A stretch of DNA of 45,977 nt. Origin: a virus (lineage: Duplodnaviria; Caudoviricetes). The first letter of the stretch is position 1, and each line of letters opens with the position of its first letter. Positions 10,316-38,655 of this stretch are shown here, in pieces. Location: positions 1 to 45,977 of the IMG/VR virus record IMGVR_UViG_3300021082_000047. One strand, 5' to 3'. The notes below the pieces were generated by a model that made no database searches, was not told the origin of the DNA, and was given only the letters and a program-made list of their open reading frames with translations. The position numbers were made by a program, and so were the translations under genes.

Positions 10316-10435
10316 TCAGTCTTCGAGCCATGCGTCCTCGTTGCCGTGATCCGCGCGGAGCGACCGATGCGCGAATCCCCAAAAGATCGCCGTCACCGCG
10401 GAGAAGAATGCCCACCAGCCGAAGAACGTAATCAT
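10316..10435 (-). CDS. Small membrane peptide (39 aa)
   Basis: MITFFGWWAFFSAVTAIFWG; AGGAGG RBS; ATGA overlap with the sigma gene. Confidence 0.55.
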   Translation of the reverse strand: MITFFGWWAFFSAVTAIFWGFAHRSLRADHGNEDAWLED

Positions 10436-11073
10436 GCCCGCCTCCTTGCCAGCTCGTGCATGGCCTGCGTCTCGAGTTGCCTCACCTGCCGGCGCGTGAG
10501 CTTCAGCCGCTTCGCGCAGGCATCCACCGTGTGCTGTTCCTCGCCTTCGATGCCGTAGCGGAGCTTGAGCACGGAAGCCGACGCGCGCGGCAGAGTTCCG
10601 AGCATCCTTCCGAGCTTGCGCGCGTCGTCGTTGGCAGCCGCGATCCGCTCCGGCCTCGGCTGACTGCACCTGGCCTGCTCGATCGCCTCGCCGAGCGCGA
10701 CCTTGGCCTTCTTGGCGCACTCCGTCGAGGACGCCGATCCTTCTCGCCAGCGGTAGTACTCCGGGACGCGGATCAGGGATCCCGTGTTGTGGATCGCGCG
10801 CTGCATGAACTGGATCACCCAAGGCGTTGCGTAGGTGGCGAACTTCACCCGCTTCTTCGGATCGTAGTCCTCGAGGGCGCGGATCAGGCCGAGCATCCCG
10901 TGTCCAACCAGATCGTCGAAGTCGAGCCCGCCGCATCCCTTCATCCGCTCGGCGCGCGCCTTCACGAGCCCTTGATTGCGCAGGATCATCTCGTCCCAGG
11001 CGGCGGTGTCGCCCTTGCGGATGCGCGCGATCAGCGCGAGTTCTTCCTCGCGGGTGGGGTGGGAGAACTTCAT
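10432..11073 (-). CDS. Sigma-70 family RNA polymerase sigma factor (RpoD/RpoS-like, shortened)
   Basis: Region 1.2 TREEELAL; region 2 NQGLV..DLVGHGMLGLIRALEDYDP..KFATYATPWV; region 4 VLKLRYGI..TRRQVRQLETQAM. Confidence 0.9.
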   Translation of the reverse strand: MKFSHPTREEELALIARIRKGDTAAWDEMILRNQGLVKARAERMKGCGGLDFDDLVGHGMLGLIRALEDYDPKKRVKFATYATPWVIQFMQRAIHNTGSLIRVPEYYRWREGSASSTECAKKAKVALGEAIEQARCSQPRPERIAAANDDARKLGRMLGTLPRASASVLKLRYGIEGEEQHTVDACAKRLKLTRRQVRQLETQAMHELARRRA

Positions 11074-11333
11074 GCGTTCTTCCACCTCCCGCAGATCACG
11101 AGCGCCGCGCGCATCTTTTGCAGGAGGGCATCCGTCTCCGTCGGCGGATACCCCTCTGGCGCGAAGGTGTTCGGCCCGCCCAGCTCGCGGATCTCCTCAT
11201 GCGCCAGTTCGCACGCATCCGCGAGCGCCTTCACCTGCATCCGCAGGTGGCGGATGTGATCGCCAAGGGCGGTGAACTCCGCGTCTACGGGATCGATCTC
11301 GGACTCGACGACCTGCTTTCCGTTGCGGATCAT
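11070..11333 (-). CDS. Hypothetical protein (87 aa)
   Basis: AAGGAGG RBS; ATGA overlaps. Confidence 0.65.
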   Translation of the reverse strand: MIRNGKQVVESEIDPVDAEFTALGDHIRHLRMQVKALADACELAHEEIRELGGPNTFAPEGYPPTETDALLQKMRAALVICGRWKNA

Positions 11334-11536
11334 GACGCCTCCTTCGGGAGCATGTCGAACGCCAGGGCTGCCTTCTTGAACGCGAGCGAGAGGTTGAGAC
11401 GCATCTCCATCGGGAGCGCATCGAAGTCGGGACGGTTGCGGACCAGCGACACATCCGCGATGAACGCGATCAGGAGAGATTCCACGCGCTCGCGGGCGGT
11501 ATGGGTCGGCATGGCGATGGGACGAAGGGCGTTCAA
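11330..11536 (-). CDS. Hypothetical protein (start TTG 11536 or ATG 11512)
   Basis: Fills the gap with 4-nt overlaps. Confidence 0.55.
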   Translation of the reverse strand: MNALRPIAMPTHTARERVESLLIAFIADVSLVRNRPDFDALPMEMRLNLSLAFKKAALAFDMLPKEAS

Positions 11537-11886
11537 GATGCACCAGCTTTCTTCGAGTAGAAGCGCACGCCGTTGGCGGCCATTTCCTTGTCGTTGCAGG
11601 CGTCGCACTGCTTCTTGCCGGACAGCTCCTCGATGCGCCCGAAGTCGGCGCTGTCAAAGAGCTTGTCGCAGTCGTCACAGGTCAGGATGTCCTGATCCTG
11701 ATCCATGAACGCCTGCGCCGCCGTCTCGCGCGCCCACCTGGGGTCGTAGACGGGGCGGTCGAACTCGATCCGACCATCCGCGAAGAGCGTCGCCTCGACG
11801 TCGTTGAAGTCCGAGTAGTCCGTCTCGGCCTTGATCCACACCTCGCACACCTTGAAGGTGGAAGGATCGAACTTGGTTTCGCTCAT
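11533..11886 (-). CDS. Hypothetical zinc-ribbon protein (117 aa)
   Basis: CDDC..CDAC; ATGA overlap with the HNH gene. Confidence 0.65.
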   Translation of the reverse strand: MSETKFDPSTFKVCEVWIKAETDYSDFNDVEATLFADGRIEFDRPVYDPRWARETAAQAFMDQDQDILTCDDCDKLFDSADFGRIEELSGKKQCDACNDKEMAANGVRFYSKKAGAS

Positions 11887-12395
11887 GCTGCACCCGCTTT
11901 CCGCGCACGAATCCGCTTGCACATCCGGCACATCCGGTGGGTCCCCTTGTTCTTGCCCGACTCGTGCCGGTAAACGATCAGGTTCTCCCCCTCGTAGGCG
12001 TGACCGGCGGGGCAGTGCGTCTTCTTGGCGTTGTGGGCCGCAATCGTCTTGCCGCGCATCAAGTTCACCCGATGCGTGACCGGCTGAAGGTGCTTCGGAT
12101 TGAAGCACGCACGATTGCGGCAGAGATGGTCGAGCTCCAGGCGCGGGTCGATCCGGCCCACGAGCTGCTCGTAGGCGTAGACGTGCATCGGCTTGCCCTT
12201 GGTGCCGATGTAGATGACTCCGTAGCCATCGGCGTTGGTGCGAGCCCACGTCCAGCACTCGCCCTCAAAGGAAGGTGGCGCGGCGTCCGCAGCGCCGCCG
12301 GGCACTGCGAAATGACGAGCAGCGTCGGAACGCCGCGCCTGTCCTTTTTGTCTGGTGGAACGCTGTGGAGATTCAGCGGACGATGAACGGAGCAT
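11883..12395 (-). CDS. HNH endonuclease, first ORF of the early operon (paralog of 836-1264); N-terminal ~40 codons may mainly serve RNA structure
   Basis: ECWTW..DGYG..LDHLCRNRACFNPKHLQPVTHRVN, THCPAGH..CRMC; GGAGGG RBS. Confidence 0.85.
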   Translation of the reverse strand: MLRSSSAESPQRSTRQKGQARRSDAARHFAVPGGAADAAPPSFEGECWTWARTNADGYGVIYIGTKGKPMHVYAYEQLVGRIDPRLELDHLCRNRACFNPKHLQPVTHRVNLMRGKTIAAHNAKKTHCPAGHAYEGENLIVYRHESGKNKGTHRMCRMCKRIRARKAGAA

Positions 12396-12516
12396 TCGCA
12401 GTGCCCTCCGAGTTTCTACCTCGGTACCGCTGATCCTCGCGGCCAGGTGCGGTTCGGGTTTATCAGGCCCGGGCCGCTGTCGGCGCGGCGCACGTTGCGC
12501 CTCACTGACGACTCAG

Positions 12517-12545
12517 AATCTACAGCGACAGATTCCGCGAGTCAA
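12517..12545 (-). promoter_or_regulatory. Leftward sigma-70-type early promoter
   Basis: Minus strand TTGACT (12545-12540), 17 nt, TAGATT (12522-12517). Confidence 0.7.
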
Positions 12546-12690
12546 GAAAGAATTTCTTTGACCACGCCAAAAAGCAAATCAGGAGGCTCGGACGCTGAAG
12601 TCCGTCAGAAAACGCCATCTGACTACGGAGCGGAATGCGCTGTTTTCGGGGATCCCGGATCGTGACCGGGTGGGTGCCATCAGTCGGAGC

Positions 12691-12805
12691 GCTCGAATGG
12701 TACTACGGATTGACTGGCCGTTCGTGTTTCTACCACGGCTTGTGGGTGTAGGGTGGTGCCCACCCTCCCGACTTATCACCGGGACCCACGGGGGGCCGTT
12801 CGAGC
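12691..12805 (+). ncRNA. Predicted structured small RNA immediately upstream of the tRNA
   Basis: Hand fold: P1 GCTCGAATGG/CCGTTCGAGC, P2 GCCGT/ACGGC, P3 TGTGGGT/ACCCACG enclosing P4 AGGGTGG/CCACCCT and P5 CCCG/CGGG; G-U pairs favour the plus strand. Confidence 0.55.
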
Positions 12806-12809
12806 ATCA

Positions 12810-12882
12810 GGGGTCGTCGTTCAATTGGATAGGACCTGGGCCTACGAAGTCCAGTATCCCGGTTCGAGTCCGGGCGACCCCG
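12810..12882 (+). tRNA. tRNA-Arg(ACG), no encoded CCA; probable attP
   Basis: Acceptor GGGGTCG/CGACCCC, D arm GTTC/GGAC, anticodon arm TGGGC-CTACGAA-GTCCA, T arm CCCGG-TTCGAGT-CCGGG; abuts the integrase stop codon. Confidence 0.92.
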
Positions 12883-13806
12883 CTACTTTTCCTTCTTCTT
12901 CGGCGGATTCCAGACCTTTTTCTTCCATTCCTGGATCAGGTGGGCGTCGCCCATGTCCATATAGTGCAGGGTCATGGCCCTCGTGGAGTGCCCGACCACC
13001 TTCTGAATCAGCGCGCCGTCTAATCCGCTCCGCGCGAGGCTTGAAATGGCTGTCCAACGGAGCGCGTGGATGTCCAGAGAGCGCCCCGTTTGATCCTCGC
13101 GGGGGATTTCAGCGCGCTTCAGCGTGTCGAAGAAAGCGCGTCGCGCAATGCCGTGCGTGCTCTTTGACCACGGGTCGCCGTTCGGTGTGACAAAGATCAG
13201 CGGGCCGACGGACTTCGCCTTGAGCTGCGCCGCGAACGCCGGACGAATCGGGACCGAGCGAGGCGGCCCGCTCTTCCCTCGCGTCGGTCGCAGGTGAACC
13301 ATGTTCTTCCCGATGTCGTCCACCGTCAGACCGACGACGCGGCCCCATCGCTGACCGAGTTCGATCAGCGCTTCCCAGATCGGCGTCATCGGGAATTCGA
13401 GTTCGAGGTCTTCATCCCGATGCCTGGAAGCAGCGAGAAAACGCTGTATTTCGGCCTCGCTCATGGATCGCCTGAGCTTCTTCAGGTCGCACGGTCGCTC
13501 GGGGAGAGCTTTGATCCCTTCGATGGGGTTCTCCTGGATGAGCTTCGCGCCGCGGCACCACTCGAAGAACGTGCTGAGCGCCTTGATCTCGGCGTTGATC
13601 GTCCGGTTGCTCTTCCGCTTCGACTTCCGCCACTGTCGGTAGCGGAGAATCCTCACCGGGTCGAAGTCTTGGAGATGCTTCATCAGGCGGTGAAGCTGGC
13701 TCCTGACGTTTCGGTAGTGGTCGTCCCCGGCCCTGTCCTTCAGGTCTTCGAGGTAGAGTTCGATCAGTTCGGACGGTGATCGGGCCGCGCGCTTTTTGGC
13801 GAGCAT
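12883..13806 (-). CDS. int: Tyrosine recombinase / integrase
   Basis: SAM-like N domain (RTINAEIKALSTFFEW), LGQRWG (catalytic R), HALR, VGHS..MTLHY; GGGAGGG RBS before ATG 13806. Confidence 0.92.
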   Translation of the reverse strand: MLAKKRAARSPSELIELYLEDLKDRAGDDHYRNVRSQLHRLMKHLQDFDPVRILRYRQWRKSKRKSNRTINAEIKALSTFFEWCRGAKLIQENPIEGIKALPERPCDLKKLRRSMSEAEIQRFLAASRHRDEDLELEFPMTPIWEALIELGQRWGRVVGLTVDDIGKNMVHLRPTRGKSGPPRSVPIRPAFAAQLKAKSVGPLIFVTPNGDPWSKSTHGIARRAFFDTLKRAEIPREDQTGRSLDIHALRWTAISSLARSGLDGALIQKVVGHSTRAMTLHYMDMGDAHLIQEWKKKVWNPPKKKEK

Positions 13807-13890
13807 GGCTTCAAATCCGCCCTCCCGTGTCACTTTCGACGCTTCGCCGCCGCTTCCGGCTTGCGTCGAACCCCGGTAGAATCCTTGGGT

Positions 13891-14133
13891 ATGGCGCAAA
13901 AGCGTAGGCGTATGCCAAAAAGTGACAAGATCACCCGGAACACCTGGCTCACCCCCGGGTACGCGAGCCTGCTCATGGGCGGGAGGCCGAGCGATCAGAC
14001 GATCATCAACGCCATCCGAGACGGGCGGCTGGACGGGATCATCACGTTCGGGGACGACGACACCAGAGCGTACTCGGTCCAGTGGGGGAGGGTGCGCTCT
14101 TTCACACCCAGGATCTACACCCGCAAAAGCTGA
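13891..14133 (+). CDS. Excisionase-like / winged-HTH DNA-binding protein, divergent from int
   Basis: WLTPGYASLL..SDQTIINAIRDGRLDG resembles HTH_17/Xis; TAGAAT 8 nt upstream of the ATG. Confidence 0.6.
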   Translation: MAQKRRRMPKSDKITRNTWLTPGYASLLMGGRPSDQTIINAIRDGRLDGIITFGDDDTRAYSVQWGRVRSFTPRIYTRKS

Positions 14134-14282
14134 ACACCTTCTGTGAATTCCGAGGCAAACACCCAAGAAAGCAAGGCAAGGCAGATCCTGGCGTTTCATG
14201 GGGCGTAAGGTTTACGACACACCCCTTGCCGGATTCTTGCGCTTGTCACTTTTTTTCTGGCCCGTCGCTGTAGACTCCCGCC

Positions 14283-14486
14283 ATGCGTGAAGAAGAGCCG
14301 CGCCGCGTCCTCGTCGAGCAGACCTCGAAGAAGCTCAAGAAGGAGCACCTGCTGTGGGGCTGCCTGCTTCTCGTCGGGCTCGGCCTGCTCCTGTGCGGCA
14401 TCTGGAAAGCCGGACTCGTCGCGATGGCGGTCGGAGCCGTCGGATGCGGCGCGGTCAAGCAGAAAATCTGGTGGGACCACGGATAG
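14283..14486 (+). CDS. Small two-TM membrane protein (possible superinfection-exclusion/lysogenic gene)
   Basis: EQTSKKLK, two hydrophobic segments, C-terminal WWDHG. Confidence 0.7.
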   Translation: MREEEPRRVLVEQTSKKLKKEHLLWGCLLLVGLGLLLCGIWKAGLVAMAVGAVGCGAVKQKIWWDHG

Positions 14487-14488
14487 CC

Positions 14489-14902
14489 ATGAGAACCATC
14501 CTCGCCATCGTCCTCGCGTCCTCTCTCGCCCTCGGTCAGAAGCAGGAGATCTGCCAGGAGAACAGCGACAACGCCTACGCCACGATCTCAACGGTGATCA
14601 CTCCGACCCTGTACGTCGGCGGCCTGCCCAACCAGCCGTTCATCCTCTGGGCATCGCAGACGTTCCTGTGCTCAGCCGCCACCATCGAGGCCGGCAGCGT
14701 GGATCTCGCCTTCTACGAGGGGAGCCCGTTCTTTCTCACGATGGGCAACACGGGCGCGCAAACCTACTGGACGGCCGACCTCCCCATCGTCTTCGAGCTG
14801 GGCTACATCTTCATGCAGGCGGCTGTGGTGGATCCGACCGCGCCCGGGGGATGGCGACTCACGGCGCGTGTGTTCTGGTCTGAGGGCTGGCAGCCCGGGT
14901 AA
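14489..14902 (+). CDS. Secreted protein (137 aa), distant paralog of 45046-45516
   Basis: Signal peptide MRTILAIVLASSLALG; GSVDL motif; C-terminal QAAVVDPTAPGGWRLT. Confidence 0.75.
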   Translation: MRTILAIVLASSLALGQKQEICQENSDNAYATISTVITPTLYVGGLPNQPFILWASQTFLCSAATIEAGSVDLAFYEGSPFFLTMGNTGAQTYWTADLPIVFELGYIFMQAAVVDPTAPGGWRLTARVFWSEGWQPG

Positions 14903-38554: not shown

Positions 38555-38655
38555 TAGTCGCGCCTCGCGGGGCGGATGAGCAGCCAGTACAGCGCGAGCC
38601 CGACGCAGGCGATGCCCGAGCAGAAGCCGATGATAAAGGCAGGCCAGAACATCAT
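38554..38655 (-). CDS. Small membrane peptide (33 aa)
   Basis: MMFWPAFIIGFCSGIACVGLALYWLL; GGGGG RBS-like; TAATG junction. Confidence 0.5.
   Translation of the reverse strand: MMFWPAFIIGFCSGIACVGLALYWLLIRPARRD

Follow-up and report, generated by a model that had tools for sequence, protein, structure and literature searches.

A predicted tRNA-linked antisense RNA facing the early operon of a tailed phage with a probable planctomycetal host

We lean, with some reservation, towards the view that a temperate phage genome encodes an antisense immunity RNA resembling C4 and CI, which would act across divergent transcripts and be released by tRNA processing. The match between the loops of this candidate RNA (R) and those of the early leader (L) is a real, non-random feature, and in our computations the leader is bistable owing to a 12-bp anti-RBS element. 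Comparison with phage tRNA genes suggests the anticodon arm of tRNA-Arg(UCU) as the model or ancestor of the main recognition hairpin. The switch as a whole is a prediction from one genome. A sequence-only reading had already proposed an RNA switch here; loop complementarity, a duplex over the SD, the plus-strand fold of R, its tRNA-like 3' end and the lack of a cI-type match in Pfam and PHROG scans all speak for it, but it was incomplete, having overlooked the tRNA-Arg(UCU) arm identity, a segment ahead of R that may trap it, and the bistability computed for the RBS.

The window analysed, a whole viral contig of 45,977 bp (G+C 64%), encodes a terminase, portal, capsid, Sak4-like ATPase, sigma factor, two HNH proteins and a tyrosine integrase, with nearly all genes of the contig running leftward. 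Its IMG/VR record is labelled linear and 50% complete. A direct repeat of 906 bp (89% identical), with paralogous small genes inside, occupies both contig ends (1-906 and 45072-45977) and probably broke the assembly; because of this repeat, and because the terminase-to-portal gene order closes, the genome is probably nearly whole. The phage is a temperate, helper-independent, tailed phage of 46 kb, probably with a host among Planctomycetota, the host assignment following from a secreted protein (14489-14902) that resembles Planctomycetota clusters only. Two sequencing runs contain the whole stretch, both from freshwater sediment. The gene for this secreted protein is one of two that run against the main direction (14283-14902, plus strand), the other encoding a small membrane protein; the pair is moron-like, possibly with a role in exclusion. 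The ATG of its first gene lies 6 nt past a -10-like hexamer, and this gene and P0008 (below) may both be leaderless. The early operon also encodes a sigma-70-type factor with regions 2 and 4 (10432-11085, minus strand).

The leftward early region comprises the following features:

12517..12545, minus strand: leftward early promoter (TTGACT-17-TAGATT), with its start site probably near 12510
12396..12510, minus strand: structured early leader L, the putative target RNA (minus-strand fold of 12400-12510, z -2.19)
12449..12477, minus strand: leader hairpin c, whose 9-nt loop exposes UGAUAA (target 2)
12408..12424, minus strand: hairpin of the leader displaying GUAGAAA as its loop (target 1); the first GG of the SD belongs to the 3' arm
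11883..12395, minus strand: first early gene, an HNH endonuclease heading the replication/recombination operon
12348..12392, minus strand: weakly structured C-rich stretch (18 C, 7 G) directly past the AUG

The early promoter is one of two consensus promoter matches in 11000-14500, where 0.4 would be expected, and the first early gene begins with an AUG at 12395, 9 nt from its SD (GGAGG, 12409-12405). An arm of the target 1 hairpin had been said to overlap this SD; two G's are indeed common to both. No intrinsic terminator was called in the early leader. The C-rich skew past the AUG is equalled by 1.7% of genome windows and some other gene starts are similar, making the stretch a possible, weak and unexceptional candidate for a Rho loading site. 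Two similar hairpins, at 12277-12297 inside the first gene and at 12481-12501 at the leader start, can pair with each other (17/21), which closes a 225-nt domain. The second target loop (12454-12470, minus strand) reads CU-GAU-AA above a stem with a C-A mismatch; it resembles the anticodon loop of tRNA-Ile(GAU), with a YUNR U-turn motif.

On the opposite strand, the region up to the integrase contains:

12525..12553, plus strand: possible but weak promoter for rightward transcription (GCGACA-17-AAGAAT), which overlaps the early one
12646..12681, plus strand: segment U, computed to pair with R (12752-12788) and to mask both of its loops before the precursor is cut
12691..12809, plus strand: candidate small RNA R, 115-119 nt, with an 11-bp closing stem and a 3' tail AUCA
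12722..12738, plus strand: R loop 1, an anticodon-type arm with loop UU-UCU-AC
12767..12783, plus strand: R loop 2, ACUUAUCAC atop a 4-bp stem
12810..12882, plus strand: complete tRNA-Arg(ACG), CCA not encoded, its 3' end abutting the integrase stop codon
12883..13833, minus strand: tyrosine integrase, starting at 13806 or 13833, its stop codon abutting the tRNA 3' end

Within the contig, GTTTCTACC occurs only at 12412 and 12726, with no reverse-complement copy, and TTATCA at 12460 and 12773, with one further reverse-complement copy at 38631. These positions, the shared order and the spacing (48 vs 47 nt) agree with what had been reported; all four copies lie in loops on R(+) and the leader(-), as their placement at hairpin tips had implied, and the antiparallel complementarity of the leader loops to a rightward RNA is borne out by the loop-against-loop score. 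The stems, described earlier as unrelated, are not: 12403-12424 and 12717-12738 are identical at 18/22 positions, and the stems CCGAG/CTCGG and TCGTG/CACGG around the common loop TTTCTAC differ by one A:T to T:A swap and one C:G to T:G change. Because one of these differences is a compensatory swap, both hairpins persist around unchanged loops. The 13-nt R loop drawn at 12722-12734 is a likely alternative, whereas the MFE structure has the 7-nt loop TTTCTAC (stem probability about 0.52).

As bare words the match is weak and unremarkable: 253 of 20,000 shuffles match it (490 with either orientation counted), as do 274 of 2,278 genome window pairs. Scored loop against loop, the R and leader windows, which were picked post hoc, reach 15; neither 3,000 shuffles nor 1,600 genome window pairs rise above 11, and none attains the 9+6 loop match. 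The score depends on the boundaries of R, since genome windows stepped over the same locus did not reproduce it. The matches had been cautiously put at only 9 and 6 nt, which holds for the words but not for the pairing, which extends to 22 nt over the SD. The SD region of the leader is the best partner of this 22-nt R arm among 22,892 genome windows, narrowly ahead of the next (-31.6 vs -30.0); the leader ranks third among genome windows for the 17-nt core of the arm, and lies outside the top six sites genome-wide for the second R arm. After opening costs the net duplex energies are -11.7 (22 nt), -4.7 (9 nt) and -2.7 kcal/mol (6 nt), the last of these marking the second kiss as weak. A third copy of the loop at 13875-13883 (8/9 match), overlapping a -10-like hexamer, was left as probable chance.

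For 12691-12805(+), previously folded by hand into five helices, RNAfold gives an 11-bp closing stem and five further helices (-52.4 kcal/mol, z -2.27; 5 G-U among 40 pairs), arranged as a D-like arm, an anticodon-like arm and a three-way domain. The minus strand gives -44.0 (z -1.72); R thus folds better on the plus strand, and the tRNA needs a plus-strand transcript. The 3' end of R is tRNA-like (A-UCA) and lies 4 nt upstream of tRNA-Arg(ACG), and its 5' end, with G12691 at +1, is tRNA-like as well. The 5' G, the 11-bp stem, the AUCA tail and the nearby tRNA hint at RNase P maturation; the tRNA is probably the attachment site too. From the early promoter rightward to the tRNA we found no coding frame, only structured sequence. 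A plus-strand frame across R (12595-13023) was rejected as coding, with no Pfam match and no coding signal.

Segment U is predicted to hold R in a different structure before processing. Its duplex with R (-49.0, against -39.2 +/- 3.7 in shuffles) was reached by 2 of 200 shuffles; the total energy of U and R together is borderline, 21 of 400 shuffles being as strong, and U pairs mainly with the R stems. Between the long precursor and the trimmed RNA, the probability of the loop 1 stem rises from 0.03 to 0.52 and that of the closing stem from 0.05 to 1.0. A hairpin at 12654-12670 (plus strand), part of U, has a stem as in the T arm of the tRNA (16/19 identical), with a CCA 6 nt later. The earlier remark that no clear rightward promoter exists was accurate: the best candidate, at 12525..12553, is weak, agreeing with the consensus at 8 of 12 positions, under the threshold of the promoter scan, and no TAnnnT hexamer occurs on the plus strand upstream of R. 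Back-to-back TTGAC hexamers form an imperfect palindrome (12541-12563) between the two directions, the rightward one having no -10 at normal spacing.

The RBS of the first early gene is itself part of a computed three-segment switch:

12390..12409, minus strand: segment A, with the SD and AUG; also a 5-bp hairpin with the anticodon-type loop CU-GCG-AA
12300..12311, minus strand: segment B, the anti-RBS, a perfect 12-nt complement of 12395-12406
12272..12297, minus strand: segment C, which pairs with B or folds alone (loop CU-GCG-GA) before a weak U tract

Segment B sits 85 nt downstream of segment A, and can pair instead with C over 11 bp (-19.1 kcal/mol). The 12-nt anti-RBS repeat is equalled at 1 of 1,140 sampled positions, probably the same site, and at none of 32 other starts. 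The A:B and B:C states are isoenergetic (-68.1 and -68.4 kcal/mol), and with the R sites held unpaired the fold favours B:C over the terminator-like C hairpin.

In the antisense reading that we prefer, the weak rightward promoter would produce a U-R-tRNA precursor in which, by structure computation, U hides both R loops. RNase P could cut at the 5' end of the tRNA, and probably also at G12691, to free a stable product, about 119 nt long, in which both loops are open; were this maturation slow, it might give an incoming phage a time window. Mature R is computed to kiss both leader loops and to zip over 22 nt, including the SD of the first early gene. Translation of this gene would then be blocked, leaving the A/B/C region, whose bistability is computed, and the C-rich stretch ribosome-free, and the early operon might be silenced by polarity or termination, the termination and the sign of the effect being presumed. 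With a whole tRNA at the integrase end, the processing site would stay intact in both free and integrated phage. In a bolder form, which we regard as doubtful, these parts would set lysis or lysogeny without a repressor, a tRNA-Arg(UCU)-derived RNA kissing the AGA loop over the first early RBS; the RNA would be matured together with the real tRNA-Arg at the attachment site, and tRNA-Arg(UCU) or arginine supply could feed in.

The origin of the shared hairpin was addressed by an IMG/VR scan, which returned 15 matches: five fall on anticodon arms of genes that ARAGORN calls tRNA-Arg(TCT) (four distinct sequences), one is a tRNA-like copy cut by a contig end, and nine are unrelated. One matched tRNA is identical to the annotated tRNA-Arg of Mycobacterium phage Myrna (NC_011273). 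Read on the plus strand, 12408..12424 matches all 17 nt of the anticodon arm in phage tRNA-Arg(UCU) genes; in R an altered stem carries that loop, and the leader displays the complement of the loop, centred on AGA. These data also feed an unlikely alternative in which L(+) and R(+) are paralogues, former tRNA-Arg(UCU) genes that have decayed or been repurposed and that share a strand with tRNA-Arg(ACG), be they a worn tRNA cluster, old attachment-site relics or anticodon-nuclease decoys; the leader would then be complementary simply because the early promoter happens to separate L from R. The five tRNA-Arg(TCT) matches to the left hairpin suit this alternative, as does the alignment of L and R over about 120 nt with arms in the same order. 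A model built from the matched tRNAs scores 12392-12454(+) at 18.7 bits (E 0.017), with 6/7 of an acceptor-like stem, a score that is circular since the model was chosen for that anticodon arm. Against it, the tRNA-like fold of L(+) is not the MFE (-13.9 vs -17.4), neither ARAGORN nor the Rfam tRNA model (RF00005), even at E<=10, called L or R a tRNA, and only the anticodon arm of each is tRNA-like, D and T consensus being absent.

The strand of the left element bears on the same alternative, and the evidence is mixed. Earlier caveats, that G-U pairs might let this element fold on the plus strand and that the two could be paralogous RNAs, still stand: hairpin c (12449-12477) folds to -20.3 on the plus strand, with four G-U pairs, vs -11.9 on the minus, a gap of 8.4 kcal/mol. 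On the other side, only on the minus strand is the word fully open and the promoter strong. The openness of the second word is 0.90-1.0 in L(-), 1.0 in R(+) and 0.11-1.0, or half paired, in L(+), for which no good promoter was found. Nor would decay be expected to spare just the two loops and the SD overlap. Hairpin 12479-12510, with one G-U pair per strand, was set aside as an indicator of strand.

Arginine recurs across the locus. Genome-wide, 35 of 837 hairpins with five-bp stems and seven-nt loops are anticodon-type and eight of the 35 read Arg; five of these eight fall within 12281-12853 (<600 nt), one being the real tRNA arm. Two further anticodon-type leader hairpins read GCG, also Arg. 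The first 27 codons of the first early gene include four CGU and one AGA among six Arg codons, both rare genome-wide (44 CGU and 19 AGA among 595). It is nonetheless improbable that the leader senses arginine tRNA in the style of the thrS operator, with tRNA-Arg(UCU) kissing the AGA loop or ArgRS binding the two GCG hairpins, and R and the phage tRNA serving as mimic or titrator. Arg identity elements include C35 and U/G36, and a precedent exists in thrS (PMC9976931); the same paper names A20 as the main ArgRS determinant, which the isolated arm lacks. The clustering and the rare codons are post hoc and partly dependent; the four hairpins amount to two non-independent pairs, and complementarity to segment B accounts for each GCG loop. 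A T-box leader was also considered and rejected, Rfam giving no match at E<=10 in 12000-13200.

We give similarly little credence to a protein decision, with the RNA pair a secondary tuner or unrelated. The candidate is the following:

13891..14133, plus strand: P0008, a small HTH_17/Xis/Cox-like protein, the sole non-sigma HTH candidate found

No cI/XRE repressor was found in 78 ORFs by Pfam and PHROG, nor in 25 ORFs at E<=5. P0008 remains as a Cox-like candidate: as a winged helix of Cox/Xis type it would repress the early promoter. Its likeness is to HTH_17, excisionase and Cox clusters, with all Atlas family scores under the naming bar. In favour of this reading, a 14-nt motif shared at 13/14 positions by 12516-12529 (minus strand) and 14264-14277 (plus strand) overlaps a -10-like hexamer at each site, the first belonging to the early promoter and the second to the promoter ahead of the two rightward genes; it may be an operator or mark a class of promoters. 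At the early promoter itself we saw no array of repeated operators. Moreover, the position of P0008, divergent from the integrase, is usual for an excisionase. Upstream of the integrase and of the rightward genes alike is a perfect 13-nt inverted repeat (13917-13929 / 14242-14254) with a TTGTCA hexamer. The integrase itself is short, about 310 aa, and its family is small, close relatives being few; integrases of 75, 59 and 59% identity exist. Attachment sites at anticodon loops take the form of an inverted repeat around a 7-bp core, and the integrase adjoins the locus, yet we consider it very improbable that the two palindromes with their identical 7-bp core are DNA recombination sites of this short enzyme rather than RNA, since their direct orientation means that recombination would delete the early promoter, and since the second loop, the R fold and its G-U pairs would be left unexplained.

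Homologues of the locus were sought by several routes. Integrase searches, with the single protein and with alignments, over viral, metagenome and genome contigs returned the contig itself and relatives of 23-31% identity only, and a capsid search found no homologous locus. None of 61 Sak4-family loci has an integrase match; their best nucleotide match to 12251-12900 is one 34-nt stretch (E 0.013), ARAGORN found tRNAs in four of the 49 scanned, and the three inspected (L185, L202 and L156) lack the module. INPHARED blastn gave short matches over the tRNA part only. A two-word pattern scan of 121 loci gave no sign of the module, the four loci with a second copy of the 9-mer all being AT-rich, and four of the 13 listed DNA runs yielded only identical 151-nt pieces over the locus.

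RNA-based prophage immunity of the C4 and CI kind has been described from elements infecting Proteobacteria, with RNA and targets in one transcript. If the antisense reading is true, its divergent-promoter version with an attachment-site tRNA would widen RNA immunity to a new phylum and a new architecture; if the bolder form holds as well, a tRNA gene would have been caught turning into an antisense repressor. The anticodon-arm identity makes two ideas testable: that tRNA-like repressors originate from tRNA genes, and that host tRNA cross-talks with the lysis-lysogeny switch. The parts of the switch together occupy about 600 nt and are open to in vitro tests.

R is a member of neither C4 nor P4 CI, given the lack of an Rfam score, its different size and arm number, its divergent wiring and the absence of an antirepressor. 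The available part of PMC12197685 describes no such system, and the literature searched, mostly outside subscription journals, yielded no published account of this arrangement. The C4 RNA of P1/P7 (RF01695, clan CL00128; targets RF03163, c4-a1b1) is a small tRNA-like RNA, processed by RNase P, with two loops and RBS occlusion (PMC5320573); PMC11143913 is a further source for this working mode. R resembles it in having two recognition loops complementary to two targets, one over an RBS, by computation, and in its predicted release by RNase P, which PMC5320573 states for C4. The comparison with C4 invited by the sequence-only reading gave no score above the Rfam gathering threshold: c4-a1b1 scores 12.1 bits against a cut-off of 46.7, and C4 has no match at E<=10. 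R has 115-119 nt, a closing stem and five helices, whereas C4 has about 77 nt and three stems; C4 targets an icd-antirepressor operon, whereas R would target an HNH-headed early operon, with no antirepressor family among the 78 ORFs. Moreover, the targets of R lie on a divergent transcript and R is fused to a real tRNA.

P4 CI is a processed RNA that represses a replication operon by RNA only (PMC4825925, with PMC3632133 for seqA/seqC), and repression of this kind is predicted for R. Like seqA, segment U may base-pair with its RNA before processing. For the premature termination and immunity that P4 CI and C4 bring about, the possible counterparts here are the weak C-rich stretch and the bistable fold. 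In P4, seqA and seqC flank CI on one transcript, whereas the RBS target of R is on the opposite-facing one; in both P4 CI and C4 the RNA and its targets share a transcript, whereas the R words flank the leftward promoter as direct repeats, with no same-strand complement of the 9-mer in the contig. The present phage is also helper-independent, tailed and probably planctomycetal, and has no sequence similarity to P4. The E. coli thrS operator places two anticodon-arm mimics in an mRNA leader near the RBS (PMC9976931), much as two anticodon-type hairpins lie near the RBS here; it governs a synthetase gene rather than a phage early gene, and the leader hairpins are explained more simply as switch segments. 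Finally, L and R are not tRNAs and lack D or T consensus, yet the left hairpin and the anticodon arm of phage tRNA-Arg(UCU) genes agree over all 17 nt, and R has that loop too.
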